A stretch of DNA of 64,000 bases. Source: Gemmatimonadales bacterium. Its GTDB lineage: Bacteria > Gemmatimonadota > Gemmatimonadetes > Gemmatimonadales > GWC2-71-9. How positions within the stretch are numbered: the stretch's first letter is position 1; each line of letters begins with the position of its first letter. The translations under genes and the position numbers were made by a program. The DNA lies in contig JBIOTT010000024.1 of NCBI GenBank assembly GCA_044866195.1, forward strand, positions 4,849 to 68,848. The letters are read 5' to 3'. The notes beneath the pieces were generated by a model that ran no database searches, was not told the origin of the DNA, and was given only the letters and a program-made list of their open reading frames with translations. Shown here in pieces: positions 1-41,605 of this stretch.

Positions 1-2241
1 CCGGCCGGGCACCGCCGCGAAGTCGTCCATCTCGTTGTTCAGGAAGAACCCCGCGTCCGGCAGGTACACCCCGGACCCGTAGCTGCTGTTGAGCGTCACC
101 GTCACGGCGACCGCGTTGCCTTGAGCGTCGATCACCGAGTAGCTCGTCGTGTGCGTGCCGCCTGGCGCAGCCACCTCGAACGCCGGCGAGGGCGATGCGC
201 GCCCCGGCTCAATGCCGCCGGCAAGCCGCGCCGCGTATGCCTTGCTGGTGAGCTCGGCGACCGGCACCCGCACGAAGGCCGGATCTCCCAGTCGCGTGTT
301 CCGGTCCACGAACGCCCGCCGGAACGCCTCGGCAAGGAGGTGCTCGTACGCGGCGCTCCCGAAGGGGGCGAGCGTCGGCCGAGTCTCGAGCATGTTCAGG
401 ATCTCGAGCAACGCGATGCCGCCTGACGACGGGAGCGGCATGGTGAGCAGCCGGTAGCCCCGATACGTGCCCGCCAGCGGCTCGCGCCAGAGCGGCCGGT
501 ATGCCGCGAGGTCGGCGCGGGTGATGATCCCACCGCCTCGCCTCATCTCGGCGACGATCTGGTCGGCAATCAGGCCGCGATAGAAGGCCTCCGGACCCCT
601 GGCAGCGATTTGCTGGAGCGTGCGAGCCAGCGCGGGCTGTCGCAGAACGGCTCCCGGCGCGAGCGGCACATCCTGCGGAAAGAATGTCGCCCCGCCGCTG
701 AACCAGGTGATGAGGGGCCGAGCTTCGGAGAGGCTCCGAGCCAGCGCGCTGTCCACGGTGAAGCCCTGGCGGGCGAGCCGGACCGCCGGAGCGATCACGT
801 CACGGAGCGGCAGCTTCCCGTAGCGGCGACGCGCTTCCGCCAGCCCGGCGACGGACCCCGGAACCCCCACCGCGAGATGGCCCACCAGGCTCTTGCCGGT
901 CGTGCGCCCCGCCGTGCCGGCATACATATCGCGGCTGGCTGCGCGGGGCGCGACCTCCCGGAAGTCGAGCGCCGCCGTGCGGCCGCCGGCCAGGTGAAGC
1001 ACCATGAACCCGCCGCCACCCAGGTTGCCGGCAGCGGGGAGTGTCACGGCCAGCGCAAAGCCGACTGCGACTGCCGCATCAACTGCGTTGCCGCCGCGGC
1101 GGAGCATCTCGAGCCCGGCTCGACTCGCCGGCTCGCTGCTGCTCGCGATCATGGCGCGGCCCACAGGCGGCGCGCTGCGCCACATCCGGGTTTGCCCGCC
1201 CTCGCCTACGGCAACAACGGTACCGGAGCCGGGCAGTGCTGCGACTGCGTTGGACGCGACCGAATCGCGCCTGGCCCAGCGGCGGCCGTCGTCCGGGGAC
1301 TCGAACGTGCCCGCCGTTCCCACCGCGACCACGGTGGCGCCGCCTCCCTGGCCGTTCACGTAGGCGACGCTGGACAGATAGCTGGTCGCCCGCGCGCTGT
1401 CGGCGAGCCGCCAGGTCCGGCCGCCATCTGAGGTGATCGCGACGTTGGGACGCCTGGCTCCCGGGTCCGCGTAGTCACCGCCCACCGCGATGCCGTTGAG
1501 CGAGTCCCGAAACGCGAGCGAGAAGATGCCAGTGCTGGGACTGCCAGACGGCAGCGGCGTGGAGCTAGGCTCCCAGGTCCGGCCGTAATCGCTGGATCGG
1601 AACACCCGTGCGGTCGCACCCGCCCCGCCAACGCCTCCTGTGCCGATCCAGGCGCGCCCACCGGCGCCAACAGCCACGGCGGTGCCGCTCGCGGCGAACG
1701 CAGCTTCACCCGGCAGTGCGGTAGGCGACGTGGCGGCAGGCAACTGAGCCCAATGGGCGCCGCCGTCCTCCGTCCGCAGAACCAGGAACCGCCCGTCCAT
1801 CGGGTCGCCTACCGCGATCCCGCGTGACGCATCCCAGAACGCGAGGCCGTCGAGGAACACGCCCTTCCTGGTGTCGTCGTATTGCCGGATCCAGGTTCGC
1901 CCGCCATCGCTGGTCCGGTAGATGCGGGCGGTGTCGGCCCCGGCGACCATTGCGTACGCCAGTCGTTGGCTCACCGCCTCGATGTCTCGAAGATCGAGCG
2001 ACGCCGCGTCGGGGATGGGGCGGAGCTCCCAGGACCGGCCACCGTCGGTCGAGCGGAGCACGGTACCATTGGTGCCGGAAGCCCAAACCGTGCCGTCGGC
2101 GGCTGCGCTAAGGCCACGCAGGGAGGCCGTGACCGATGATGCCGAAGCAGGCGCGACCTGCGCCTCGAGCGACGAGCCAATGGCCGCCTGCAAGAGGATC
2201 AATGCGAGGACGCCGCCACGTGGTTTCAGACCGGCCCTCAC
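1..2241 (-). CDS. ggt: Secreted Asp-box (BNR) beta-propeller fused to gamma-glutamyltranspeptidase; 3' end lies beyond the left window edge
   Basis: Manual translation of the minus frame. It is absent from the ORF track because its stop is outside the window. GTG start at 2241 gives a signal-like MRAGLKPRGGVLALILLQAAIGSSLEAQV. Asp-box motifs LRSTDGGRSW, YRTSDGGRTW and ITSDGGRTW are present. The same frame then reads MIASSSEPASRAGLEMLRRGGNAVDAAVAVGFALAVTLPAAGNLGGGGFMVLH, and FFLNNEMDDF at nt 1-60, which are GGT hallmarks. No in-frame stop was seen. Confidence 0.8.
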   Translation of the reverse strand, partial: MRAGLKPRGGVLALILLQAAIGSSLEAQVAPASASSVTASLRGLSAAADGTVWASGTNGTVLRSTDGGRSWELRPIPDAASLDLRDIEAVSQRLAYAMVAGADTARIYRTSDGGRTWIRQYDDTRKGVFLDGLAFWDASRGIAVGDPMDGRFLVLRTEDGGAHWAQLPAATSPTALPGEAAFAASGTAVAVGAGGRAWIGTGGVGGAGATARVFRSSDYGRTWEPSSTPLPSGSPSTGIFSLAFRDSLNGIAVGGDYADPGARRPNVAITSDGGRTWRLADSARATSYLSSVAYVNGQGGGATVVAVGTAGTFESPDDGRRWARRDSVASNAVAALPGSGTVVAVGEGGQTRMWRSAPPVGRAMIASSSEPASRAGLEMLRRGGNAVDAAVAVGFALAVTLPAAGNLGGGGFMVLHLAGGRTAALDFREVAPRAASRDMYAGTAGRTTGKSLVGHLAVGVPGSVAGLAEARRRYGKLPLRDVIAPAVRLARQGFTVDSALARSLSEARPLITWFSGGATFFPQDVPLAPGAVLRQPALARTLQQIAARGPEAFYRGLIADQIVAEMRRGGGIITRADLAAYRPLWREPLAGTYRGYRLLTMPLPSSGGIALLEILNMLETRPTLAPFGSAAYEHLLAEAFRRAFVDRNTRLGDPAFVRVPVAELTSKAYAARLAGGIEPGRASPSPAFEVAAPGGTHTTSYSVIDAQGNAVAVTVTLNSSYGSGVYLPDAGFFLNNEMDDFAAVPGR

Positions 2242-2410
2242 GCGAGAAGATGGACGAAGCAAAGCTCGGCGGAAGTTAGCCGGTCCAGCCGGTCCCACGG
2301 TGAGCCAGCCGGAAGGTGACGCAGGTCAACGACCGGGCCCAATCCCCCCGTTAGGGGTAGGAAGTATGAGACTTCCCTTCTCCGACCGGCATGACGGCGT
2401 GAGGTAGCCA

Positions 2411-3121
2411 ATGACTTCAAACCCGATAAATGAGAGCCGTTCGGTCCGGATCCAGGCAGCCGGTGTGACCCTCGATGGCGATCTCTCCCTTCCGGCTGGC
2501 GCGACCGGGATCGTCGTCTTCGCCCACGGCAGCGGAAGCAGTCGGCTGAGCCCCAGAAATCGCGGCGTAGCCGGCCAGCTCCAGCGGGCCGGCTTCGGGA
2601 CCCTGCTCTTCGACCTGCTCACGCCGCGAGAGGACGCGATCGACTCGGTCACCGCCCAGCTGCGCTTTGACATCTCCCTGCTGGCGGAGCGCCTCGCGGG
2701 CGCAGCCGACTGGCTCGGATCGCAACCGGCGGTCCGGGGTCTAGCGACGGGCTACTTCGGAGCGAGCACAGGCGCGGCCGCCGCGCTCGTAGCGGCGGCG
2801 TTGCACCCGCAGGCGGTACAAGCCATCGTGTCCCGTGGGGGACGTCCGGACCTCGCGGGCCCGGACCTCCAGCGGGTGAAGGCTCCGACCCTGCTGATCG
2901 TGGGTGGCTACGACACCGCGGTCATCGGGATGAACCAGGCGGCGCTCGTGCAGCTCCAGGTCGACGCCAAGGAGCTCCAGATCGTGCCCCGGGCCACCCA
3001 TCTCTTCGAGGAGCCCGGCGCGCTGGATCAGGTGGCGGAGCTTGCAATCGGCTGGTTCCGGCGACACTTGGGCGCCGAGGCTCACGCAGCCGCGGGCGCG
3101 AGCCGGCACGGGCATCCGTAG
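2411..3121 (+). CDS. Dienelactone-hydrolase-type alpha/beta hydrolase
   Basis: 236 aa. Has VVFAHGSGSSRLSPRNRGVA and a nucleophile-elbow-like GYFGASTGAAAAL. GAGG sits upstream of the ATG. Confidence 0.7.
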   Translation: MTSNPINESRSVRIQAAGVTLDGDLSLPAGATGIVVFAHGSGSSRLSPRNRGVAGQLQRAGFGTLLFDLLTPREDAIDSVTAQLRFDISLLAERLAGAADWLGSQPAVRGLATGYFGASTGAAAALVAAALHPQAVQAIVSRGGRPDLAGPDLQRVKAPTLLIVGGYDTAVIGMNQAALVQLQVDAKELQIVPRATHLFEEPGALDQVAELAIGWFRRHLGAEAHAAAGASRHGHP

Positions 3122-3151
3122 AGGTGCCCGCGGGTTCGACGGGAGGCTCCC

Positions 3152-4579
3152 TTGCTCGCCTTTCCCACGAATCGGGTGAGTCCATTTATCCGGGAGATCC
3201 CGATATCGGCCCGTGACGACATGCGGGTGCCGGTCCGGGTGTACGCGGACGAAGACCTCTGGCGCCAGATCGTAGACGACCGTTCCCTCGAACAAGCGGT
3301 CAATGTCGCCACATTGCCGGGGGTGACGGGATATGTGCACACGATGCCCGACGTCCACGAGGGCTACGGCTTCCCGGTGGGCGGCGTGGCAGCGACGCGC
3401 ACCGCCGACGGCGTGATCTCCCCCGGCGGCGTGGGCTACGATATCAATTGCGGCGTTCGTCTTCTGGCGTCGGGCCTCGACCACGAGACTGCTCGGCCCT
3501 CTCTCGAGGCCGCCGTGCACGACCTCAGCCGCAGCATCCCGTCAGGACCGGGTCGTAATCCCCTCCTCGACCTGAGCGAGCCCGAGCTGAATCGGGTGCT
3601 GGACGAGGGATGCGAGTTCCTGCTGGAGCGCGGGCTGGCCACGCCTGAGGATCTGACCAGCACCGAGGCCAGCGGGCGGCTCCCCGCCGCCGACGCCAGC
3701 TGCGTCTCGGCCAGAGCCAAGCAGCGCGGCCATAATCAGCTTGGCACGATCGGCTCGGGAAATCATTTCGTGGAGGTGCAAGTCGTCGACCAAATTTTCG
3801 ATGACGCGGCAGCCGAGGCGTTCGGATTGCGGCCGGGGCAGCTCACCGTACTGATTCACACCGGCTCCCGCGGCCTCGGGCATCAGGTGTGCACCGACTA
3901 TGTCCGGCAGATGGATCAGGTAATGTCGCGCTATGGCATCCGGCTGCCGGACCGGCAACTGGCTTGCGCGCCGCTCGGCTCGCCCGAGGGACGGGCCTAT
4001 TTCGCTGCGATGTGCGCGGCGGCGAATTTCGCGTGGGCCAATCGGCAGGCGATCACCGCGAGCGCGCGGCGGGTGTTCGAGCGCACATTCGGTGACCGCG
4101 GCCAGCTTCGGGTGGTGTACGACGTCGCGCACAACATTGCCAAGCTCGAGCCGCACGGCGGGGCCGAGGTCTGCGTGCACCGGAAGGGCGCGACCCGCGC
4201 GTTCGGCCCCTCCAGCCCGGAGACGCCGGCTCGCTATCGGTCCGTGGGGCAGCCGGTCTTGATCCCGGGAAGCATGGGGACGGCCTCGTACGTGCTGGCG
4301 GGTACCGACTCTGGGATGGCAATCAGTTTCGGCAGCACCTGCCATGGCGCCGGCCGGGCGATGAGCCGGGGCGAAGCTAAACGGGCTCGCTCAGGCCATG
4401 AGGTGCGGCGGGAGCTCGAAAGCCGCGGCATTATCGTGCGCTGCCCGTCGAGCAGCGAGCTCGCCGAGGAGGCGCCGGGAGCGTACAAGGACGTCGAGCG
4501 GGTCGTCGATGTAGTGCAAGGAGCCGGCCTGGCCCGCAAAGTTGCCCGACTGAAGCCACTTGGCGTGATCAAGGGATAG
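3152..4579 (+). CDS. rtcB: RNA-splicing ligase RtcB (3'-phosphate/5'-hydroxyl RNA ligase)
   Basis: Motifs [43 protein letters not shown] and TCHGAGR. The N-terminus [21 protein letters not shown] resembles archaeal-type RtcB. TTG start is preceded by GGGAGG. Confidence 0.93.
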
Positions 4580-4592
4580 AGAGGAAGCAAGC

Positions 4593-5162
4593 ATGGAACT
4601 GCCGCTTCAGATCAGCACCAGGAACTTCGAGCTTTCGTCAGCGGACGAACGGGTGATCCGCGACGGGGCGGCGAAGCTCGAGACATTCGCGCGCCGGATC
4701 ATGAGCTGCCGAGTTCTGATCGAGCTCGAAACCCGGCGGCGCAGGACGGGAAACCTGTACAACGTTCGCATCGACCTCGCCGTCCCCCGCGGCGAGCTGG
4801 TGGTCAAGCGCCAGCGAGAGACGAGCTTGCTCACCGCCGCGCAACAGGCGTTCAGGGCGGCGGCCCGGCAATTACAGGACCGGACCCGCCGGCGCCGCGG
4901 AGAGGTCAAGCTCACCCAAACCGCACCGCACGCCGTGGTGGCTCGCCTCATGCCCTGGGAAGGATACGGGTTTCTCACGGCAGCAGACGGTCGCGAGATC
5001 TACTTCGACCGCCGCAGCGTGCTGGATGATGCGTTCGATCGGCTCGAGGTGGGCACCCACGTGCGCTTCGCGGCGGAGCCAGGCGAAAACGGTCCGCAAG
5101 CCAGCACCGTGGCCCTGGTCACACGTCGAGAATCACCTCGCCCTCGACGCCGTCGAGTGTAG
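4593..5162 (+). CDS. HPF/RaiA (S30AE) ribosome-associated domain fused to a C-terminal cold-shock-like domain
   Basis: The N-terminal ~75 aa (MELPLQISTRNFELSSADERVIRDGAAKLETFARRIMSCRVLIELE...) fit the HPF/RaiA pattern. The C-terminal part (WEGYGFLTAADGREIYFDRRSVLDD...EVGTHVRFAAEPGENGPQASTV) is CspA-like. A GAGAGGAAG RBS is present, and the start is 13 nt after the rtcB stop. Confidence 0.7.
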   Translation: MELPLQISTRNFELSSADERVIRDGAAKLETFARRIMSCRVLIELETRRRRTGNLYNVRIDLAVPRGELVVKRQRETSLLTAAQQAFRAAARQLQDRTRRRRGEVKLTQTAPHAVVARLMPWEGYGFLTAADGREIYFDRRSVLDDAFDRLEVGTHVRFAAEPGENGPQASTVALVTRRESPRPRRRRV

Positions 5163-5544
5163 CGTCCACCCGGACGCCGTGCAGAGTCGCCGCCTTGACG
5201 AAGGTGGGGACGCGGTCCACGCTCACCCCGCGGGCGCGGACCCGCAGCGTCCGGTCCTCCGCCCGCTCCACCTCGAACTCGGCCCCTATCCAGCCTTCCG
5301 TCTCGGCCAGGAAAATGAGCTCGTTGAGCCAGTCGACCAGCAGCGCCGCCCGGTCGGTCGCCGACACCTCGACGGTACGCCAGGTGCCGCCTGGAGCCGG
5401 TGCGCCGGCCGGGAGCTGGAGCTGTGCCAGCGCTCGGCCCGCCTCCGCAAACAGGTCAGGGAGAGAACCGGCACGCAGGCGAAGCCGGACCTCGGAAGGA
5501 TGGTGCAGGATCTCGTGGGTGGGCGGCTGGAGCGGGGCACTCAT
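5119..5544 (-). CDS. Archease (RtcB activator family)
   Basis: 141 aa. Has HPSEVRLRLRAGSLPDLFAEAGRAL, LLVDWLNELIFL and VKAATLHGVRV, matching archease family hallmarks. Confidence 0.85.
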   Translation of the reverse strand: MSAPLQPPTHEILHHPSEVRLRLRAGSLPDLFAEAGRALAQLQLPAGAPAPGGTWRTVEVSATDRAALLVDWLNELIFLAETEGWIGAEFEVERAEDRTLRVRARGVSVDRVPTFVKAATLHGVRVDATLDGVEGEVILDV

Positions 5545-5550
5545 CGGCCG

Positions 5551-5994
5551 TCAGCCAGAGGCGAGCCGCTCCAGGAGAGTCGCAGCGCTCGCGAGCACCT
5601 CCCGATCTTTGGCGCTCAGGCCGCTCAAGCGCCGGCTCAAGGCAGCCACTCGGCGGCTACGTCCGGCCCGAAGCAGGGCCTGTCCCCTGGGAGTCGCCCG
5701 CAGATAGGTGATCCGGCCGTCGAGCCGATCCCGCGAGCGGCTCACCAGCCCCTCGGCCTCCAGTGCATTGACCAAGCGGGTCATGGTCGGGGGCCTCACC
5801 TGCTCGGCCGCCGCCAGCTGTCCCAGCGTGATCGGCCCGCCCCCGAACACGATGACCGACAGCGCCGAGAGCCGGGGCGCCGAGAGTCCGGTGACGGTGT
5901 CCTCCCGGCGGAGCCGGCGCAGCAGGTGGATGGCGGCCGAGTGCAGCCGGTCGGCCAGCTGCTCGTCACGGTGGCTTGCGCGATCGGTGGTCAT
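5551..5994 (-). CDS. MarR family transcriptional regulator
   Basis: 147 aa with a winged-HTH pattern (LSVIVFGGGPITLGQLAAAEQVRPPTMTRLVNALEAEGLVSRSRDRLDGR). It ends 6 nt upstream of the archease start. Confidence 0.85.
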   Translation of the reverse strand: MTTDRASHRDEQLADRLHSAAIHLLRRLRREDTVTGLSAPRLSALSVIVFGGGPITLGQLAAAEQVRPPTMTRLVNALEAEGLVSRSRDRLDGRITYLRATPRGQALLRAGRSRRVAALSRRLSGLSAKDREVLASAATLLERLASG

Positions 5995-6012
5995 GGCCTA
6001 TCGTAGCAATAG

Positions 6013-6038
6013 TTAGCAGGGCTAATTAGTTGTGCTAA
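6013..6038. promoter_or_regulatory. Candidate MarR operator in the marR/VOC divergent region
   Basis: Inverted repeat TTAGCA-N14-TGCTAA lies in an AT-rich patch with reiterated GCTAA(T) words (tagcaatagttagcagggctaattagttgtgctaatgacatgctagc). Confidence 0.4.
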
Positions 6039-6098
6039 TGACATGCTAGCGCGCCGGCCGGCCCGGCGCAACGATCGCCTCTAACCCCGGAGGCTGCC

Positions 6099-6506
6099 AT
6101 GTCCCCGCCCGCCGAAGCGTCCACCGCCGCCCAGTTTGGATTACGCCGGATTCATCAGATCGCCGTGACGGTCCAGGACATCAGCCGCGCCACCGCGTTC
6201 TACCGCGACACCCTCGGCATGACCCTGCTGTTTCAAGCGCCGCCCGGGCTCTCCTTCTTCGATTGCGGCGGGGTGCGACTGATGCTGAGCCGGCCCGAAG
6301 GGGCTGATACGCCGCGTGGCAACTCCATCATCTACTATGGCGTGGAGGACATCCGGCAGGCTCACGCAACCCTCGCCGAGCGGGGGGTCCGGTTCATGGA
6401 GACTCCCCATCTGCTGGCCCAACTGGCTGATCGGGATGTGTGGCTCGCGGCGTTCCGGGACAGTGAGGAAAACCTGCTTGCGCTCATGAGCGAGGTGCCG
6501 CACTGA
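6099..6506 (+). CDS. VOC (glyoxalase/bleomycin-resistance/dioxygenase) family protein
   Basis: 135 aa. The pattern IHQIAVTVQDISRATAFYRDTLGMTLLF is typical of the VOC fold. GGAGG RBS present. Confidence 0.8.
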   Translation: MSPPAEASTAAQFGLRRIHQIAVTVQDISRATAFYRDTLGMTLLFQAPPGLSFFDCGGVRLMLSRPEGADTPRGNSIIYYGVEDIRQAHATLAERGVRFMETPHLLAQLADRDVWLAAFRDSEENLLALMSEVPH

Positions 6507-6527
6507 AACTGAAAGCCGCGAAAGCGC

Positions 6528-7301
6528 TCACTTGGCGTCGTGGAAAATCACGCCCAGGGTGTAGCGGGTGCCGCTCCGAACCCGGCCGACGCCATGGCGG
6601 ACGTTCACCCGGTAGTATCCTCGTCCACCCTGGACCGGGCGAGTCCGGGTCGTGAAGAACACCAATCCGCCCTGCGCACCCGTCACCACCTCCGCGGCCG
6701 ACTGGGCTCGGGGGCGCTGCTCCACCAGGAGGAACTCACCCCCACGGTAATCCACCCCGGGCCGGCTCAGGAAACAGACCAGCTGCAGCGGAAAGGCCAC
6801 GTCGCCATAGAGGTCCTGGTGCAGGCAGTTGTATCCCCCCACTTCGTAGTGCAGCAGCAGCGGTGTGGGCTTGGTCTGGCCATGCGCCCGGCAACGCGCC
6901 AGAAACGCTTCGAGCGTCGGCGGGTAGCGGTCTGCCACCCCGAGCGCCTCGTTCCAGCGGTTGGCCACCGCTGCGAGTGGCGGGTATGCGTGGACCCGGA
7001 GCGCCTGGACCACCGGCGGCAGCGGTGCGGCCAGATACTTGTAGTCGCCCTCGCCGAACCGATGGCGCGCCATCTCTACCCGATGCCGGAACCGGCTCTC
7101 GTCTGGATAGAGCGCGATCAGCTCCTTGCATTCCTCGCCGCTGAGCACCGGATCCGTTTCCGCGTAGCCACGACCCCACAGATCGCGCTCGATCCGGCTC
7201 CAGTCGAGCGCCGCGATCCGCGCGGCGACCTCGGCCGATTCGGCCGACGTCCGAGCGCCGTCATGCTGGGGTGGCGCGGTCGAGGAGCTTCTACTCATCA
7301 T
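6528..7301 (-). CDS. 2OG-Fe(II) oxygenase of the type found in ada/alkA operons (non-AlkB)
   Basis: LHYEVGGYNCLHQDLYGD (HxD) and RHGVGRVRSGTRYTLGVIFHDA. The start was re-picked at the ATGATG at 7301, which overlaps the alkA stop by 11 nt. The 340-aa track ORF has an implausible Arg/Cys-rich extension. Confidence 0.75.
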   Translation of the reverse strand: MMSRSSSTAPPQHDGARTSAESAEVAARIAALDWSRIERDLWGRGYAETDPVLSGEECKELIALYPDESRFRHRVEMARHRFGEGDYKYLAAPLPPVVQALRVHAYPPLAAVANRWNEALGVADRYPPTLEAFLARCRAHGQTKPTPLLLHYEVGGYNCLHQDLYGDVAFPLQLVCFLSRPGVDYRGGEFLLVEQRPRAQSAAEVVTGAQGGLVFFTTRTRPVQGGRGYYRVNVRHGVGRVRSGTRYTLGVIFHDAK

Positions 7302-8328
7302 GGTCGGAACGGTGCAACGAGTGCCAGAGGTGCAGCGTGGCGTACCCTCGCCAGGGACGCCAGCGCTCGGCGATGGCCGACACCTCGGACCGGCGCACGC
7401 CCCGGGCGGCGAGCGCCCTGACGAGCCCGAGATCGCTCGCAAGCAACGCATCGCGATCGCCCAACGCGCGGAGCCGCAGGTACGCTGCGGTCCACGGCCC
7501 GACACCCGGCAGCGAGAGGAGCTGGCGGTCTGCCTCTTCCGGTGGCACACGGCGCAGGCCGGAGAGATTCAGCTCGCCCTTCGCGACCGCGACCGCCGCC
7601 CCGTGCACCGCAGCGGCCTTTGCGCGGGTGAGGCCGATAGTGCGGAGCTTGGCCGGCCCCAGACCCGCGATGGCGTCCGGCCGCGGGAAGGCGTAGCGCG
7701 GCCGCATGAGCGGGATGATGTCTTCCGGGGGCAGCCGGGGTGCCGGAATCGCGGCGAGTCGGACCAGACGGTCGGTCAGGGTGCGCGCCGCCGCGACGCT
7801 CACCTGCTGCCCGAGGATCGCGCGCATCAGCGCCTCGAACGGATCGAGCAGCTGCAGCAGCCTGAGACCGGGCGGATGGGCCCCGACCACCGGGCCGAGG
7901 ACTGAATCCTGCCGGGCAATTGCGGCGAACTCCCGCAGATCGGCGTCGAGATCGAACATCCGGGTCATGACCCGGCGCAACGTGGCGGCAGGCAGCTCCG
8001 GGGCCGACCGGACGATCAGCTGCGCCGAGCCCCCGCCTCCGCCCACGACCTGCCCTGCGGCGGGGAGGCTGCGATGTTGAACCGCCAGCGTCACCGCCTG
8101 CGCCTGACTGGCACCCCCGCCCCGTGGCGCGAGCTCGAGCCACACGACCCTCTCGAACCCGTCGGCGGCTATCAGCTCGAGCGATGGGACCGCGCGGGCA
8201 GCCAGAAACCGGAGCGCCCAACCGAAATCGAGCTCCGGGCCGACGTCCAAGCGCGCGGAGCCGCGCCCAGGCCGGCGTCCCTGGCCGGCCTTGATCGCAG
8301 AGGCGCGCCTAGTCACGCTGAGTCCCAT
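7291..8328 (-). CDS. alkA: DNA-3-methyladenine glycosylase II (AlkA; AlkA_N + HhH-GPD)
   Basis: HhH-GPD motif LLSLPGVGPWTAAYLRLRALGDRDALLASDLGL. Start re-picked at ATG 8328, which overlaps the ada stop at 8309. Confidence 0.85.
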   Translation of the reverse strand: MGLSVTRRASAIKAGQGRRPGRGSARLDVGPELDFGWALRFLAARAVPSLELIAADGFERVVWLELAPRGGGASQAQAVTLAVQHRSLPAAGQVVGGGGGSAQLIVRSAPELPAATLRRVMTRMFDLDADLREFAAIARQDSVLGPVVGAHPPGLRLLQLLDPFEALMRAILGQQVSVAAARTLTDRLVRLAAIPAPRLPPEDIIPLMRPRYAFPRPDAIAGLGPAKLRTIGLTRAKAAAVHGAAVAVAKGELNLSGLRRVPPEEADRQLLSLPGVGPWTAAYLRLRALGDRDALLASDLGLVRALAARGVRRSEVSAIAERWRPWRGYATLHLWHSLHRSDHDE

Positions 8329-9436
8329 CGCGACGCTGCTCGAGCGCCAGGAGCTGGCGCTTACGCTCCGGGCCCCACCGGTATCCGCCCACACCGCCGC
8401 CCTCCCGCACCACCCGATGGCAGGGAATCACGACCGCGACCCGGTTTCGCGCGCAGGCGCTTGCCACCGCGCGGACCGCCCGCGGCGCGCCGATGGACCG
8501 GGCCACCTCGGTGTAGGACCGGGTCTCGCCATAAGGGATCTCGCGGAGCGCTTGCCAGACCCTGAGCTCGAACGGTGTGCCAGCGACATCGGTCGGCACC
8601 GCTCGCGCTGGCGCCCCGTTCAGGTAACTCACGACCGCATCGAGCCACTCGCGCAGATCTGCCTGGGCCACACCGCGGTCCGGGTCGACCAGCTCGCGCT
8701 TGGCGTTGGGGTACTCGGCCGCAAGGCCGCGTTCCAGGTCGGCGTCGGTCTCGCCCAGCTGGACGGCGCAGACGCCCCGCGCCGTGGCTCCCACCAGCAC
8801 GCGACCCAGTCTGGTGGGCCGGATCGCGAACCGGATGTGCTCGCCCTGGCCGCCACGACGGTAGGCAGCCGGGGTCATGCCGAGATGCGCGCCGGCAGCC
8901 TCGTAGACCCGGCTGCTCGCGCCATAGCCCGCGTCAAACGTTGCCCGGCTCACAGTGGACCCGTCCCGGAGCGCAGCCTTGAGCCGGTCGGCGCGCAGGG
9001 CCGCGGCATAGCGCTTGGGCGAGACCCCAACCCGGCGGCTGAACGCGCGCTGCAGGTGATGGGGGCTCAGCCCGACTTCCCGCGCCAGCGTGGGAAGCGT
9101 GACCGGTTCATCCAGGTGGGCTTCGAGGAACTCGCGGGCCCGGGCCACGGCGAGGTCTATCGGCTTGGCCGCGTCCTGCGGGCGGCAGCGACGGCAGGCG
9201 CGATAGCCAGCCGCCTCCGCTGCAGCCGGCGTCGGAAAGAAGCCGACGTTCTTCCGCAGCGGCCGCCGAGAGGGGCAGCTCGGCCGGCAGTAGACGCCGG
9301 TCGTGGAGACGGCATACACGAAAGCGGCATCCCAGCGGCCGTCACGAGCGATAACGGCCGCCCAGGCCTGAGCCCCGTCGAGCCCATCGGTCAAACCAGC
9401 TGGTTGCACTGACTGCATCAGGAGAGCGGTTGCCAT
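8309..9436 (-). CDS. ada: Bifunctional Ada: methylphosphotriester-DNA methyltransferase / AraC-type activator / O6-methylguanine-DNA methyltransferase
   Basis: N-terminal Cys cluster YCRPSCPSRRP...CRRC, an AraC HTH region (LAREVGLSPHHLQRAFSRRVGVSPKRY), and the C-terminal MGMT active site IPCHRVV. Confidence 0.9.
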   Translation of the reverse strand: MATALLMQSVQPAGLTDGLDGAQAWAAVIARDGRWDAAFVYAVSTTGVYCRPSCPSRRPLRKNVGFFPTPAAAEAAGYRACRRCRPQDAAKPIDLAVARAREFLEAHLDEPVTLPTLAREVGLSPHHLQRAFSRRVGVSPKRYAAALRADRLKAALRDGSTVSRATFDAGYGASSRVYEAAGAHLGMTPAAYRRGGQGEHIRFAIRPTRLGRVLVGATARGVCAVQLGETDADLERGLAAEYPNAKRELVDPDRGVAQADLREWLDAVVSYLNGAPARAVPTDVAGTPFELRVWQALREIPYGETRSYTEVARSIGAPRAVRAVASACARNRVAVVIPCHRVVREGGGVGGYRWGPERKRQLLALEQRRDGTQRD

Positions 9437-21848: not shown

Positions 21849-22970
21849 CTACCCGACCGGCGTCGGCGCCAGCCCGCCAACCGGCAGCCGGTCCGCTCTC
21901 GGCGCTGTCATCGGCCGGGCCTCGTACGCGGCTGCCATCCCCAAGCCGAGGACCAGGCCTGCTACAAAGCCCGGGCCCTTCACCCAGCCGACGTCGAACA
22001 GCCCGTGGAGGTTGAACAGCCAGAAGCACGCGATGCCTGGGATGGTAAGCACTCCGAAGCGCCGCCAAACCCACCCGAACAGGAGCGCCACCACGAGCAG
22101 TCCAAGCAGTCCATAGTCATGCCAGAACTGCAAGATGATGTTGTGCGCCCCTTCCGTGGGCCTGTCCGCGAAGGGCAGCCTCCACGCGAACGTGGCCGGC
22201 CCGTTGCCAAACAAGAGAGTCCGCGGAGAGGCGTCGATTTCCTGCCAGGCCTGGCGCCAGGTGAGCAGGCGAAACGCAGCCGTTCGCAAGGAAGACTCGT
22301 AGTCGAACTTGAGCGCTTCCCAGATCACGCCGGCCAACACGGCCGGCGCCCCCGCCACGAAGAGCCACCGGGCCCACAGCCCGACCGCGAATAAGAGGCT
22401 CAGCGCAATAGCCGTTTTACTTCCGATGATCAGGAGCGCGATCATTGCGGTGAAGAACGCGGCAAGCTGTACGAGGGCATTCCTCCGTGCACTCGCGAAG
22501 GTGTACAAGAAGAGCATCTCGTAGATCGCTCCCACGCCGTTCTTCTGCATCCCGGGAACGAATATCACGTCCCGTTGCAGATCGATCCCGGCGCCAAGGC
22601 CGTACACCAACGTGGAGAGCGAGAAAGCCCAGAACGACCAGATGACGCCCCGTTCCATTTGCCGAAGGGCCCCAGGCTGGTCGACAGCGAGGCTCACGAC
22701 GATCGAGGGAACCGCAACCAGAAACGTGATCGTGCCCAGCAGGTTTGAGACCCGATAGGCCCCTGCCCACGTCAACGATTCTGCCAGTGCGAGCGCGCCG
22801 AACAGCAGGAGAAAGCGCCACAGTCTCGGTACCAAGGCCAGTCCCTGGCCTGATGCCGCACGACTGAGCAGCAGAGCCGTCCAAGGTAGAAGGATTAGAC
22901 CGATCGGGACAAAGCCGAGAGCCTGGCTCAGGAATGAGGCGGCGATAAACCCGACGATGCTGATGGCCAT
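21849..22970 (-). CDS. O-antigen ligase/polymerase-like (Wzy-type) polytopic membrane protein
   Basis: 373 aa with about 10 hydrophobic segments. The call rests on position in the polysaccharide operon and on O-antigen-ligase-like topology, not on a specific motif. Confidence 0.6.
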   Translation of the reverse strand: MAISIVGFIAASFLSQALGFVPIGLILLPWTALLLSRAASGQGLALVPRLWRFLLLFGALALAESLTWAGAYRVSNLLGTITFLVAVPSIVVSLAVDQPGALRQMERGVIWSFWAFSLSTLVYGLGAGIDLQRDVIFVPGMQKNGVGAIYEMLFLYTFASARRNALVQLAAFFTAMIALLIIGSKTAIALSLLFAVGLWARWLFVAGAPAVLAGVIWEALKFDYESSLRTAAFRLLTWRQAWQEIDASPRTLLFGNGPATFAWRLPFADRPTEGAHNIILQFWHDYGLLGLLVVALLFGWVWRRFGVLTIPGIACFWLFNLHGLFDVGWVKGPGFVAGLVLGLGMAAAYEARPMTAPRADRLPVGGLAPTPVG

Positions 22971-35903: not shown

Positions 35904-35985
35904 GAAAAAGCGTAAACGGTAAACGGTGAACGGGGGCTCCGATGATTCAAGGAGCCCCCGTTTACCGTTTACGCGGTTTCTTTTC
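35904..35985. terminator. Bidirectional intrinsic terminator between the ICL-family gene and hflX
   Basis: A 22-bp stem (35919-35940 pairs with 35951-35972, one G-U) with a 10-nt loop. It is preceded by agaaaaag and followed by ggtttcttttc. The arms are built from gtaaacg heptamers. Confidence 0.75.
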
Positions 35986-37234
35986 GTGGTGCCCGCTGCA
36001 CCACCCGTCCGCCAGCTTTTAGCTGTTCCGCCCTCCACGGCTCCAGCCTTACCGTCACTTCCTGCTCGACCCCCTCGGCCTTCACACCCAGCACCTCGCC
36101 GTCGCGGTAAAGTGCGGCCAGCTGGGCTCCGTCTGAGACCGGTACCCGCACGACCACCGTCACCCGCCCAGCCCGCTCCAGCTCGCGCAGCCGCGCCTTG
36201 AGCGCGGACAGGCCATCGGTCCGCATGGTCGTGGCCATCACCGCGCCGGGGTGGAGCTCCCGTACTCGCACCGCGAATTGGGTCGGGTCGGGCAGCAGGT
36301 CGATCTTGTTGAAGACGACCACCAGCGGCCGGTCGGAAAGATCGAGCTCGCCCAGGACGCCCTCGACCACCCATATCTGCTCCTCCCAGTCGGGGTGGCT
36401 CGCGTCGACCACGTGCAGCAGTGCGTCGGCCGCACGGGCTTCCTCCAGCGTGGCGCGGAAGCTCGCCACCAGGTGGTGCGGCAGTTTCCGGATGAAGCCA
36501 ACCGTGTCGCTCACCCGGCCCCGGATCCCTTCCCCCAGATCGACTTCGCGGGTGAGCGTGTCCAGGGTGGCGAAGAGCCGATTCTCCACCAGAATGTCAT
36601 GCTCTCCCGAAAGCCCCCGGAGAATGCTGGACTTGCCCGCGTTGGTGTAGCCCACCAGCGCAAGGCTCAGCATCGGGTCGCGCCCGGCGCGCACGTTTTC
36701 TCGGTGGCGCTCGACGTCCTTGAGCTTGAGCTTGAGCGCCTGGATCCGGCGGCGGATGATACGGCGGTCGGTCTCCAACTGGGTCTCGCCCGGGCCCCGG
36801 AGCCCGATACCGCCCCGGATACGGGACAGGTGGGTCCACATCCGGGTCAGCCGAGGAAGGAGATACTCGAGCTGGGCCAGCTCCACCTGCAGCTTGGCCT
36901 CGTGGCTTCGGGCCCGAGTGGCGAAGATGTCGAGGATCACCTCCGCCCGATCCATGACCCGGATCTTGAGCTCACGCTCCAGATTGGCGCCCTGAACCGG
37001 CGTCAGCTCCTCATCGAGAACGAGCAGCGTCGCCCCGACGTCGGCGACGGTTCCTTTGATCTCCTCGACTTTGCCCTCGCCGACCAATGTGGCCGGATTG
37101 GGCGAAACGACTTGCTGCGATACTCTCGCCACGACGTCGGCGCCAGCGGTGTCCACCAACTGGGCCAGCTCGTCGAGGTGCTCGGTCATGACCCGGGCGT
37201 CCGCCGAGCCTTTGCGGGGCGCCGCGACCAGCAC
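35969..37234 (-). CDS. hflX: GTPase HflX
   Basis: G1 motif GYTNAGKSS, plus DTVGF and NKID. The HflX N-terminal domain pattern is ELAQLVDTAGA. Confidence 0.9.
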   Translation of the reverse strand: MLVAAPRKGSADARVMTEHLDELAQLVDTAGADVVARVSQQVVSPNPATLVGEGKVEEIKGTVADVGATLLVLDEELTPVQGANLERELKIRVMDRAEVILDIFATRARSHEAKLQVELAQLEYLLPRLTRMWTHLSRIRGGIGLRGPGETQLETDRRIIRRRIQALKLKLKDVERHRENVRAGRDPMLSLALVGYTNAGKSSILRGLSGEHDILVENRLFATLDTLTREVDLGEGIRGRVSDTVGFIRKLPHHLVASFRATLEEARAADALLHVVDASHPDWEEQIWVVEGVLGELDLSDRPLVVVFNKIDLLPDPTQFAVRVRELHPGAVMATTMRTDGLSALKARLRELERAGRVTVVVRVPVSDGAQLAALYRDGEVLGVKAEGVEQEVTVRLEPWRAEQLKAGGRVVQRAPRKETA

Positions 37235-38710: not shown

Positions 38711-39415
38711 TCACCGTATCAGCCACTCGGCGGCGAAGAAAGCGGCCACCCCACCCACGAAAGACACCGCCGATACCCACCGGCGGCGGTTCTGAAACTC
38801 CGGCACCAGGTTGGACGCGGCGACGTACAGTGTCACACCCGCCGACAATGCGAGCCCATGCCGAGCCAGCGGAGCGACAGCTTCCGTGAGAACCGCGCCG
38901 AGCAGCGTGGCCAGCCCCAGCCCGGTGGCGGAAGCCACCGCCCGCCCCTTGCTCTGTCCGCCCGCGAGCATCATGCTGGCGATGGTCACGCCTTCCGGCA
39001 GCTTGTGCACCAGAACGGCCAGGAACAGCAGCAGGCCGAGCCGGCTGGAGGCGAGAAATCCGCTGGCAATCGCCACTCCATCGAAGAAGGTGTGCAGCGA
39101 CAGGCCGACCAGGGCGGTTACTCCGGTGGCGGCGCTGACCCGGTGGGTCTCCTCGCCATAGTGGAAATGCGGATTCATCACATGCTGGGCGAAATGGACC
39201 GCGAGATAGCCGGCGAGAACGAACCAGGCGGCGCCCGCCCCGTCCTGCAACGCGGTGGGGAACACCCCGATTACGGTGACCGCGAGCATGAATCCCGCCC
39301 CGAAAGCGATTCCCGCGTCGATCGCGTGCAGGCTCCGATGCAGATGGCGCACCACGGCCAGGGCGCCCACGACATTGCCAAGGGCGGCGGCGACCGCAAA
39401 CCCGAGCAGAATCAC
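38711..39415 (-). CDS. ZIP family divalent-metal transporter
   Basis: 234 aa and polytopic. Has HTFFDGVAIASGF and VLVHKLPEGVTIASMM, typical of the ZupT family. Confidence 0.85.
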   Translation of the reverse strand: MILLGFAVAAALGNVVGALAVVRHLHRSLHAIDAGIAFGAGFMLAVTVIGVFPTALQDGAGAAWFVLAGYLAVHFAQHVMNPHFHYGEETHRVSAATGVTALVGLSLHTFFDGVAIASGFLASSRLGLLLFLAVLVHKLPEGVTIASMMLAGGQSKGRAVASATGLGLATLLGAVLTEAVAPLARHGLALSAGVTLYVAASNLVPEFQNRRRWVSAVSFVGGVAAFFAAEWLIR

Positions 39416-40635
39416 GTGAGGTTCCGTACCAGGGCGGTGAGCCGATCGGGAGTGTTGAGCGACGGATCGTCGAGGACGCGCTCGAGCAGCTGATCGAGCA
39501 CCTCACCCACCCGGGGACCGCGCGGCACGCCCAGGGCGAGCAGGTCGTTGCCGTCGAGAGCGAGCTCTCCCCGGGTAATCGGCTCTCGCCGGCGCCGGAT
39601 CTCGGCCACCGCGCCGGCCCAGGGCGCGTCGCTGCCGTGACGGAGCCGCCACAGCGCGAGCAGGTCGTCCGCCGCGGGGCCGGCGGTGGCGAGCCACCGT
39701 CGCACCCCGGCCGCGGTTTGATCCCGGGGCTCAGCCGGCGCCTGTGCGATGGCTTCGGCCCGGCCGATCTCTGCATTCGAACCCTTGAGCCGCTGCAGCA
39801 CGGTCCCGGGCTTGGCGCACTGGAGGGCAACCAGCAGCACCGGGTCGCGAGGCTCCCGGTCGACGTCGGTGACCGAGTAGTCGCTGCCAGCGACGGGCCC
39901 GCGCACCAGCTCCGGGAGCCAGATCGCAGCGGCCCCCACCGCCTGCCAGAGCTCCACCAGCCGGGCAACCGAACGAGCGGTGCGGAGTCCCTTGAACAGC
40001 TCGTCGCGCACCCGTTCGGCGGAGAGCTGCGCCAGCCCGGGCGCAGCGGCGCGGGCCGCCTCCCAGGTCGGCGGATCGATGGTGAACCCGAACCGCGCAG
40101 CGAAGCGGAGCGCGCGGAGAATCCGAAGGTAGTCCTCCCGGAATCGCTCCTCCGGCACTCCCACCGCCCGGACGATGCCTTTCTCCAAATCGGCGGCTCC
40201 GCCGAACGGGTCGCGCCACTCGTGGCGGAACGGATGATAGGCAATCGCGTTGATCGTGAAGTCGCGGCGGGCGAGGTCTTCGTCCAGCGACACGCCGTAC
40301 GCCACGACGGCATGGCGCCCATCGGTGCTGACATCGCGGCGAAATGTGGTTACCTCGTGCAGCACTCGCCGCCGGTCCAGCACGCCGATGGTGCCGTGTT
40401 TGGACCCGATGTCCACCGTCCGCTTGCGCGGGAACAGTGCCTGGACCTGCTCCGGCCGCGCCGAGGTGGTGAAGTCGATGTCGGCTGCGGGGAGCGGACG
40501 CCCCTCCCACGCCGTGCCGAGCAGCGCGTCGCGGATGGCTCCCCCGACGCACCAGACCTCGTACCCGGCGTCTTCCAGACCCCGAGCAATGTCGAGCGCT
40601 TCATCTGGGATCTGGAGCTTAGATGGGAACCTCAT
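39412..40635 (-). CDS. cca: tRNA nucleotidyltransferase / poly(A) polymerase family (CCA-adding enzyme-like)
   Basis: VWCVGGAIRDALLG, DIDFTT and RRDFTINA. Start re-picked at ATG 40635. Confidence 0.75.
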   Translation of the reverse strand: MRFPSKLQIPDEALDIARGLEDAGYEVWCVGGAIRDALLGTAWEGRPLPAADIDFTTSARPEQVQALFPRKRTVDIGSKHGTIGVLDRRRVLHEVTTFRRDVSTDGRHAVVAYGVSLDEDLARRDFTINAIAYHPFRHEWRDPFGGAADLEKGIVRAVGVPEERFREDYLRILRALRFAARFGFTIDPPTWEAARAAAPGLAQLSAERVRDELFKGLRTARSVARLVELWQAVGAAAIWLPELVRGPVAGSDYSVTDVDREPRDPVLLVALQCAKPGTVLQRLKGSNAEIGRAEAIAQAPAEPRDQTAAGVRRWLATAGPAADDLLALWRLRHGSDAPWAGAVAEIRRRREPITRGELALDGNDLLALGVPRGPRVGEVLDQLLERVLDDPSLNTPDRLTALVRNLT

Positions 40636-40645
40636 CGCGACCGGC

Positions 40646-41605
40646 TCACCCGCCGTAGGGCACGCCGGCCGAGAGCGAGAGCAGCAGCTCCATGCGGGCC
40701 TGTGAAGGGGTGCGCGGCCCAGCCGGGACGACGCCCATGGACACGAGCCCCGCGCCGCCGCCCTCGAAGGCGTAGACCGGCGTGACCACGCCCGTGGGGC
40801 AGCGACTGGCAAGCACCACCGGCTTGCCCTCATCCAGCCAGCGTTGAATCGCCGGGATGGCGCCGGGGGGCAGGTTGCCGCTTCCGAAGGCCACGATCAC
40901 GACGCCGTCGTAGCGCGGCCGGGCCAGCTCGAGCATTTCTCCCTGGTCGCCGATCACCATGGGAACCAGGGCGACGCGCGGGCCGGAGGCCGCCAGGCGG
41001 GCGGCAGGCAGGCGGGCCGGCGCGCAGGCGGGCAGAGCGTACTCGACGCGGCCGCCTTGAACCGTCCCCAGGGCCACTCCGTGCGGGGCCGCAAAGGCGT
41101 CGAGCCGCATGGTGTCCGTCTTCACCGCCTCGTGTCCCGCGAAGACCTGCCCGGCGAACACCACGATGGCGCCGCGACCAGCGCTCCCTGGGCTCGCGAC
41201 CACTGCGGCCGCGTCCCGGAGATTGCGGGGACCATCCCAATCGGCGTCGCTGGATGTGCGCATCGCACCGGTGATCGCAACCGGGATGGCGGGGTCGAGC
41301 GTCCGCGCCAGCAGGTAGGCCGTTTCTTCTATCGTGTCGGTCCCATGGGTGATCACGATACCGCGCGGCCGATCCGGGTCTGCGGTCTGGATCTCGCGCA
41401 CCCGATTCCGCAGCGCCCAGAGGCGCTCCGGTCCCAGGTGCGCGGCCGGCACCCGGGCCCAGTTCTCGATCCGAAAGGGGGCGATCCGGTCGAGCCCCGG
41501 GATCCGGGCGACAAGTTGCTCGCCGTCGTGCGCGGGCACGTTCCCGCCGGCGGCCGGATCGTGGTGCATGGAGATCGTACCGCCGGTGAAGAGGAGATGA
41601 ATCAC
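40646..41605 (-). CDS. ansA: L-asparaginase (type I-like)
   Basis: FTGGTISM and ITHGTDTIEETAY signatures. GTG start at 41605 (GTGA overlap). Confidence 0.85.
   Translation of the reverse strand: MIHLLFTGGTISMHHDPAAGGNVPAHDGEQLVARIPGLDRIAPFRIENWARVPAAHLGPERLWALRNRVREIQTADPDRPRGIVITHGTDTIEETAYLLARTLDPAIPVAITGAMRTSSDADWDGPRNLRDAAAVVASPGSAGRGAIVVFAGQVFAGHEAVKTDTMRLDAFAAPHGVALGTVQGGRVEYALPACAPARLPAARLAASGPRVALVPMVIGDQGEMLELARPRYDGVVIVAFGSGNLPPGAIPAIQRWLDEGKPVVLASRCPTGVVTPVYAFEGGGAGLVSMGVVPAGPRTPSQARMELLLSLSAGVPYGG

Follow-up and report, generated by a model that had tools for sequence, protein, structure and literature searches.

The genes described here lie on 64,000 nucleotides of DNA from a Gemmatimonadales bacterium (assembly GCA_044866195.1, contig JBIOTT010000024.1, positions 4,849 to 68,848 of the forward strand), referred to below as the window. 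At their center are the gene for the RNA ligase RtcB and the gene for a fusion of an S30AE domain and a cold-shock domain (CSD), a probable member of the ribosome hibernation factors named HPFcold. Genes were called from an open reading frame (ORF) listing, Pfam and NCBIfam scans and direct reading of the letters. The plus strand carries a DLH-type alpha/beta hydrolase (2411-3121; Pfam DLH, cut-off 21, score 23.9 bits), RtcB (3152-4579; PF01139, E = 5e-170) and HPFcold (4593-5162; Pfam S30AE and CSD). The minus strand carries archease (5119-5544; Pfam Archease, E = 1e-22, full length) and a MarR-family regulator (5551-5994; Pfam MarR). An earlier model-made note on this DNA (the original prediction) had placed five genes at these positions, with gaps of 30 nt between DLH and RtcB, 13 nt between RtcB and HPFcold and 6 nt between the marR stop and the archease start. 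All of this is borne out by the ORFs and Pfam matches. The note had missed a convergent overlap of 44 nt between the ORFs of HPFcold and archease.

To the left of DLH, the minus-strand translation revealed a divergent gene encoding BNR/Ycf48-like repeats and a gamma-glutamyltranspeptidase (BNR/GGT). The plus-strand unit therefore begins with DLH. Neither of the junctions between DLH, RtcB and HPFcold holds a terminator-like site, and no significant terminator or structure was found in the overlap of HPFcold and archease. RtcB starts with a TTG codon, six bases 3' of a GGGAGG Shine-Dalgarno sequence. The DLH stop codon TAG (3119-3121) is in frame with this TTG, with 10 sense codons between them (3119-3154), which is probably a coincidence.

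RtcB, Archease and HPFcold

The Pfam match of RtcB spans profile positions 1-426 of 426, and the protein matches Pyrococcus horikoshii RtcB (1uc2_A) with E = 1.5e-157 in phmmer. The metal-binding and guanylylation residues D95, C98, N202, H203, H234, H329 and H404 (P. horikoshii numbering) are all identical. RtcB is therefore predicted to be an archaeal-type, archease-dependent 3'-phosphate/5'-hydroxyl RNA ligase. Archease has been shown to be the cofactor of archaeal-type RtcB (PMC3973293, PMC4604427). An RtcB of this type thus has archease as its canonical partner, and it is unremarkable that RtcR and RtcA are missing. The original prediction had spoken of non-canonical partners and of missing RtcR and RtcA. 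The second observation holds, as neither RtcA (RTC) nor Sigma54_activat domains were found in the 45 window ORFs, a subset, that were scanned with Pfam. The label "non-canonical" does not fit a cofactor that was found in at least 37 of 80 surveyed metagenomic RtcB loci.

The window RtcB is 84% identical to the RtcB of the related locus L084. The two archeases are 64% identical, and archease in L084 has the same convergent overlap with HPFcold. The window archease has no Shine-Dalgarno sequence of its own and starts 6 nt after the marR stop; transcription from the marR promoter probably continues into it.

The S30AE-CSD fusion matches the Coxiella HPFcold chain 9t0z_9 over its full length (phmmer, E = 3.2e-32; query 1-174 against chain 6-179). 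Pfam places PF02482 at residues 5-102 and PF00313 at residues 122-174. An AlphaFold (AF2) model of the window protein has a predicted local distance difference test (pLDDT) score of 83.7. The N-domain of the model matches RaiA/HPF with template modeling (TM) scores of 0.85-0.91, and the C-domain matches Csp structures with a TM score of 0.86. The aromatic YGF and YF motifs of the CSD and the C-terminal GPQA motif are kept between the window protein and Coxiella HPFcold. Sequence and model together identify the fusion as a predicted HPFcold. The founder of the family, CBU_0020 of Coxiella burnetii, was named HPFcold in 2026 and is deposited as "Ribosome hibernation promoting factor" (PDB 9T0Z/9TZE; PMC13392368). 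Its N-domain has been shown to lie in the decoding center, and its CSD to bind and protect the anti-Shine-Dalgarno 3' end of 16S rRNA (PMC13392368). The family is large, with at least 587 related stretches from many phyla in a one-genome-per-species collection. The window protein ends in a tail of nine residues, mostly Arg and Pro (SPRPRRRRV, 5136-5162), that is missing from the closest homologs (180 residues). The DNA encoding this tail is the stretch that overlaps the 3' end of archease.

Conservation of the Gene Neighborhood

The neighborhood of HPFcold was surveyed in 80 loci from different species by tblastn with Gemmatimonadales queries over 10 kb, and the counts are lower bounds. The genes found near HPFcold were PRT (phosphoribosyltransferase; 16 of 80), USP (12), CBS (11), HSP20 (11), DLH (9), RtcB (8), an aeRF1-like baeRF10 (6), BON (5) and dodecin (5); MarR and VOC genes were found in none. 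With one RtcB copy per genome and genomes of a few Mb, chance would place RtcB near HPFcold in about 0.4 of 80 loci, a rough estimate and not a computed value. Among the 80 RtcB loci mentioned above, HPFcold was found in three and DLH in one.

The closest surveyed RtcBs (74-81% identical) are all followed by HPFcold. In L085 and L086, archease lies immediately upstream, giving the order archease-RtcB-HPFcold, and L087 shows RtcB-HPFcold on a short contig. Distant RtcBs mostly occur as archease-RtcB alone, the commonest order among relatives. The pair with HPFcold recurs in other phyla. An alphaproteobacterial metagenome-assembled genome (MAG) carries RlmJ (a 23S rRNA methyltransferase), archease, RtcB and HPFcold in a row, convergent with a beta-CASP/RMMBL ribonuclease (L029, 7169-11950). 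In a gammaproteobacterial MAG, HPFcold faces RtcB-archease (L048), and a Binatia MAG carries DUF2267-RtcB-HPFcold (L058). In a neighbor-joining tree, the HPFcold-linked RtcBs fall in two separate clades, a biased test in that the second clade was sampled through HPFcold alone. The link between RtcB and HPFcold is real yet facultative, and the earlier pairing of an RNA ligase with a ribosome-hibernation-type factor was upheld.

In close relatives these genes belong to larger islands. According to Pfam, the island of L082 reads PRT-erythromycin esterase-DLH-CBS-baeRF10-small ORF-BON-HPFcold-dodecin-USP, followed by HSP20 and a PPDK-like gene. The island of L084 reads baeRF10-small ORF-BON-RtcB-HPFcold with a convergent archease, followed by dodecin-USP. 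BON is followed by HPFcold without RtcB in the close relatives L082 and L167. A profile of baeRF10 matches the hibernation factor Balon of Mycobacterium tuberculosis, Rv2629 (8v9k_z), over nearly the full length with E = 3e-5, and also Balon MSMEG_1130. The profile was needed for this match, as a single-sequence phmmer search against the PDB returned none. Such a Balon-type gene lies near RtcB-HPFcold in L084, L085 and L086. The baeRF10 of L082 has no tblastn match in the window, and no Balon, USP, HSP20, BON, CBS or PRT genes were found there.

Origin of the Locus

The history of the locus is visible in syntenic relatives. Both L170 and L171 carry Ada-AlkA-oxygenase-VOC followed by MarR-BNR/GGT, with 63 or 14 nt between MarR and BNR/GGT. 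DLH, RtcB, HPFcold and archease are all missing from between these two genes. L169 differs from both in having one DLH (78% identical) between MarR and BNR, oriented as in the window. In blastn alignments, L170 is collinear with window positions 9549-5558 and 2188-3, with about 120 nt between the two segments. On both flanks, L169 and L170 keep the order of the window at 74-79% identity. Because L170 and L171 lack the module and L169 has DLH only, positions 2189-5557 of the window, which hold the DLH promoter, DLH, RtcB, HPFcold and archease, are an insertion. Part of this insertion has a counterpart elsewhere: L084 6552-8945 aligns unbroken with window 3145-5537 at 78% nucleotide identity (blastn). 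RtcB-HPFcold-archease is one conserved block. The order RtcB-HPFcold-archease-MarR-VOC recurs exactly in L081, an independent Logan contig, which makes an assembly artifact less likely.

The locus is a mosaic of a DLH cassette and an RtcB-HPFcold-archease cassette at the junction of marR and BNR/GGT. Both cassettes may derive from a widespread stress and dormancy (ribosome-hibernation) island and would have been placed between the resident marR and BNR/GGT genes. DLH itself aligns with "dienelactone hydrolase" 2O2G of the PDB (E = 9e-77). The GASTG, GGYD and ATHLF motifs, the last of the form (A/S)HLF, are identical or near-identical in this alignment. DLH is predicted from these motifs to be a serine hydrolase of the DLH/alpha-beta-hydrolase fold with a nucleophile-acid-His triad. 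At least 8000 candidate homologs were found at E <= 1e-10, and the best 120 of them are 64-81% identical. The nearest relatives sit in PRT-erythromycin-esterase-DLH operons without RtcB, and direct adjacency of DLH and RtcB was seen in none of the surveyed loci other than the window. The DLH cassette could be a remnant of such an operon that retained its promoter with a CRP/FNR-like box. The adjacency of DLH to RtcB, like that of MarR to archease, is regarded as a local accident.

Two observations concern the wider hydrolase family. A stand-alone receiver-domain (Response_reg) gene follows DLH in its closest relatives (L165, 8731-9114; L166, 1270-1650). A receiver domain is also part of one DLH homolog (P0154), a fusion that may point to a phosphorelay link of this hydrolase family. 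A DLH domain in Rv0571c was considered and set aside.

The Putative DLH Promoter

A CRP/FNR-like box, GTGACGCAGGTCAA (2316-2329, plus strand), is a candidate activator site for the promoter of DLH-RtcB-HPFcold. When one mismatch to TTGAC-N4-GTCAA is allowed, no other site in the window matches. Upstream of DLH, the sole well-conserved stretch common to the window and L169 is CGGAAGGTGACGC(A/C)GGTCAACGACCG. The box GTGACGCNGGTCAA is also found upstream of the PRT-erythromycin-esterase-DLH operon in L165, and a degenerate form is found in L082. A putative -10-like hexamer, TAGGGG (2352-2357, plus strand), begins 22 nt after the box. The distance from box to hexamer is 21-22 nt in four orthologous promoters, namely TATACC in L169, TAGCAG in L165, TAGTGG in L082 and that of the window. 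This spacing would put the center of the box near -41.5, which is the geometry of class-II CRP/FNR promoters. These features suggest that an activator of the CRP/FNR family drives DLH-RtcB-HPFcold. A generic sigma70 scan returned no promoter in the region of 2352-2357.

Other motifs were considered. Between the putative -10 hexamer and the DLH start lies a perfect palindrome, GGAAGT-N5-ACTTCC (2360-2376, plus strand). It was rejected as a shared regulatory site, being present in a single copy in the window and absent from the loci compared. It was also rejected as an RNA hairpin, as its fold is no better than that of shuffled sequences (z = -0.7). A direct repeat, CTTCAY-N6-TTCAC, with an 11-bp register was found upstream of island genes in seven related Gemmatimonadota loci and, as one more exact match, inside L052 (Acidiferrales). 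The Gemmatimonadota sites are L001 12294-12321; L009 7002-7018; L019 12444-12460 and 13277-13293; L037 9097-9113; L082 7137-7153; L084 5767-5783, 11676-11692 and 12455-12471; and L086 1901-1917. The genes behind these repeats are BON, CBS, PPDK-like, PRT and archease genes, and the repeat may be a site for a response regulator or an alternative sigma factor.

MarR and Its Candidate Operator

Two tandem palindromes, TTAGCAGGGCTAA and TTAGTTGTGCTAA (TTAGC-N3-GCTAA; 6013-6038), lie in the divergent promoter region of marR and the VOC gene and form a candidate MarR operator. They are nearly invariant in L169, L170 and L171. MarR has orthologs at 77-85% identity. No similar palindromes of the MarR type were found upstream of DLH. 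Because the palindromes are confined to the marR-VOC region and are kept with or without the inserted module, MarR is predicted to regulate the divergent VOC gene and the marR transcript itself. The probable co-transcription of marR and archease would result from the insertion and is no conserved design. The BNR/GGT gene, which lies directly downstream of marR in relatives, may be the original partner in the MarR operon.

A Proposed Role in Ribosome Hibernation and RNA Repair

The findings can be joined into one account. An activator of the CRP/FNR family would sense a stress, which is probably one of oxygen, redox or energy limitation. It would then start a single transcript of DLH, RtcB and HPFcold. 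HPFcold would plug the decoding center of idle 70S ribosomes, and its CSD would clamp the anti-Shine-Dalgarno 3' tail of 16S rRNA. RtcB, made capable of multiple turnover by archease, would rejoin RNA ends with 2',3'-cyclic phosphate and 5'-OH groups. Such ends may arise from endonuclease cuts in rRNA or tRNA during dormancy, and their resealing would let translation restart. DLH would be a co-regulated serine hydrolase, and the expression of archease from the MarR promoter would be a by-product of the insertion. This account of an inserted mosaic with CRP/FNR-type stress induction, protection by HPFcold and resealing by RtcB and archease is considered reasonably probable.

Several points weigh against it. 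No RtcB was found within 10 kb in 72 of the 80 HPFcold loci, and no HPFcold in 77 of the 80 RtcB loci. The TAGGGG hexamer is weak as a -10 element. The bare pattern TGAC-N4-GTCAA occurs at 12 positions in about 2 Mb (all loci, both strands), which is close to chance by a rough estimate; what carries weight is that its position is conserved across the four orthologous promoters, and that alone. The window genes that were scanned include no CRP/FNR gene, and the CTTCAY-N6-TTCAC repeat of the related islands is not present near DLH or in the window module. Finally, the proposed co-transcription is argued from short gaps, Shine-Dalgarno sites and the missing terminator.

A more specific version of the account concerns the 3' end of 16S rRNA. 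According to work cited in PMC6101614, the 3' fragment of MazF-cut 16S rRNA can be religated by RtcB. Colicin-E3-cut 16S rRNA has been shown to be repaired by RtcB2-PrfH (PMC9304027, PMC9223846). An RtcB with a partner that binds the decoding center therefore has precedent. Archease-RtcB-HPFcold might be a dedicated protect-and-repair module for the 16S rRNA 3' end. The CSD of HPFcold would keep the anti-Shine-Dalgarno tail, or a clipped fragment of it, in place on hibernating ribosomes, and RtcB with archease would reseal cuts made there by endonucleases like MazF or colicin E3. If true, the module would be a hibernation-coupled counterpart of PrfH-RtcB2 that has spread across phyla by horizontal transfer. 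The idea is put forward tentatively and is judged rather unlikely.

Shared regulation alone could also account for the gene order. RtcB and archease would then be a general tool for the repair of tRNA, mRNA or rRNA that shares a regulon with HPFcold, with no cooperation between the proteins and without a dedicated function at the 16S 3' end. The island is modular, with RtcB in 8 of 80 HPFcold loci and BON-HPFcold without RtcB in L082 and L167. Most archease-RtcB pairs lack HPFcold, and RtcB has been shown to act on many substrates (PMC10630183). Against this stand the recurrence of same-operon adjacency across distant lineages and two clades of RtcB, the RlmJ and beta-CASP ribonuclease neighbors in L029, which point to ribosomal RNA, and the precedent of RtcB with the decoding-center binder PrfH (PMC9304027). 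Shared regulation without cooperation is possible and is judged somewhat unlikely.

The original prediction had proposed an rRNA damage-response unit in which DLH, RtcB and the HPF-CSD fusion are specific partners and the whole is under MarR-type control. Tight gene packing and the archease start 6 nt past the marR stop, probably read through from the marR promoter, fit such a unit, and the link of RtcB to HPFcold is itself real. The other evidence is contrary. MarR homologs were found in none of the 160 surveyed HPFcold and RtcB loci, and marR loci without the module retain the operator-like palindromes and the VOC partner. MarR is a resident gene of the older locus, and synteny and operator distribution led to the rejection of MarR control of the plus-strand operon, upstream of which no MarR-type palindrome was found. 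The closest DLH relatives keep other company, and among the loci surveyed, DLH and RtcB were seen side by side only in the window. Of the neighborhood as first described, the RtcB-HPFcold-archease part is conserved and the DLH and MarR neighbors are not; the MarR-controlled unit is very improbable. A recent juxtaposition without meaning or an assembly chimera, whose genes are not expressed together and have no joint role, is hardly credible: the window does come from a metagenome-assembled genome and the region is demonstrably mosaic, but L081 shows the identical gene order from RtcB to VOC, the ORFs are all intact with conserved catalytic residues, L084 keeps RtcB-HPFcold-archease as a unit and L169 and L170 are collinear with the flanks.

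Under the favored account of a stress-induced mosaic, the locus has several implications. The structure of HPFcold was described only in 2026, and its genomic partners had not previously been analyzed. HPFcold, RtcB and archease travel together, and HPFcold adjoins the genes of an RNA ligase and its activator in several phyla. This gives the testable idea that ribosome hibernation is coupled to the repair of rRNA ends, possibly at the 16S 3' tail held by HPFcold. The locus also illustrates how cassettes of a stress island are trimmed and re-inserted. Finally, it cautions against inferring regulation from adjacency alone, as the neighboring MarR appears to be a bystander.

Genomic Surroundings

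To the right of MarR lie the divergent VOC/glyoxalase gene and an Ada-AlkA-AlkB-like operon for the repair of alkylation damage (6528-9436). On the minus strand, this operon comprises Ada (AraC/methyltransferase, 8309-9436), an AlkA-like glycosylase (7291-8394) and an "Oxygenase-NA" 2-oxoglutarate-Fe(II) enzyme (6528-7550). The order Ada/AlkA-like/Oxygenase-NA is kept in L170 and L171. To the left, the BNR/GGT fusion (1-2298, minus strand) runs past the left end of the window and has a signal-peptide-like N-terminus.

The remainder of the window is ordinary chromosome, with an extracellular polysaccharide (EPS) cluster, HflX, a CCA/poly(A) polymerase-type nucleotidyltransferase, AlaRS, RecA and FtsK. 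The names of homologs place the source of the DNA in Gemmatimonadales. The EPS biosynthesis and export cluster (9594-30000) holds GT4 glycosyltransferases, a MurJ-like flippase, Wzz/GNVR, Poly_export/SLBB and several methyltransferases. Inside it lies tRNA-Tyr (21907-21993), the sole tRNA of the window. The HflX-type GTPase (35969-37234, minus strand) and the nucleotidyltransferase of the CCA-adding/poly(A) polymerase family (39412-40833, minus strand) lie some 30 kb from the module, to which they have no evident link.

Over positions 1500-7000, an Rfam search gave nothing above the gathering score, and neither Y RNA nor other known RNAs were found near RtcB. A P10 match within rtcB scored 28 bits, below its threshold of 37, and was dismissed as chance. 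A reading of the locus as a defense system was also rejected, as PADLOC yielded generic CSD and winged-helix similarities and nothing more.

Comparison With Known Systems

The window HPFcold has the same architecture as its Coxiella counterpart CBU_0020, in which a short linker joins an S30AE/RaiA N-domain to a cold-shock domain. It differs in its phylum, Gemmatimonadota, which PMC13392368 does not name among its highlighted lineages, and in its additional Arg-rich tail of nine residues. Its gene also shares a putative operon with RtcB, which is not mentioned in PMC13392368.

Other RtcB systems differ in subtype and partners. In the RtcR-rtcBA system of E. coli, an RtcB-family ligase is induced by stress on the translation apparatus, which is the point of likeness. 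The window RtcB is of another subtype and has archease, and RtcA and the sigma54/CARF regulator RtcR were not found in the scanned window genes. The archease-RtcB "tRNA splicing operon" of P. horikoshii (PMC3973293, PMC4604427) has the same catalytic residues and archease nearby. In the window and L084, archease has instead come to lie convergently downstream of HPFcold, outside the transcript of RtcB; in L085, L086 and L029 it precedes RtcB. The window host is a bacterium, and no intron-containing tRNA was seen in the window.

The RtcB2-PrfH system likewise has an RtcB gene beside that of a binder of the decoding center or A site, with the rescue of ribosomes cut at the 16S 3' end as its proposed purpose (PMC9304027, PMC9223846, PMC13166195). 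In the window, the partner is a hibernation factor and not a release-factor homolog, and RtcB is predicted to be of the archaeal, archease-dependent type and not RtcB2; the similar mechanism is a proposed one. The neighbors of the window rtcB are DLH, HPFcold and archease, with no PrfH or RF-like gene beside it. We know of no ribotoxin link for the RtcB-HPFcold module.

The closest likeness is to stress operons that contain hibernation factors. Balon genes have been found in stress operons, most often beside RaiA and also beside Hsp20, OsmY and RtcB (Helena-Bueno et al., Nature 2024, PMC10901736), and chimeric HPFs often adjoin Balon (bioRxiv 10.1101/2025.11.04.686544). An RtcB gene beside hibernation-factor genes has thus already been published (PMC10901736), and the locus is a further case of a known type of stress operon. 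The DosR regulon of M. tuberculosis includes Rv2631 (RtcB), Rv0079 (HPF type) and Rv2030c (PRT and erythromycin esterase; PMC5309233, PMC4410610), and Rv2629 (Balon) is induced by hypoxia (PMC10901736). In the Balon/RaiA operons and the DosR block Rv2623-Rv2631, hibernation-factor genes cluster with Hsp20, OsmY/BON, USP and RtcB, and the islands of the Gemmatimonadota relatives are alike. The locus in the window differs in being a trimmed four-gene version at a new site, without Balon, with HPFcold in place of plain RaiA and with no DosR-type regulator or box identified in it. Gemmatimonadota, a poorly studied soil phylum, would thus possess a dormancy toolkit that resembles the mycobacterial DosR regulon.

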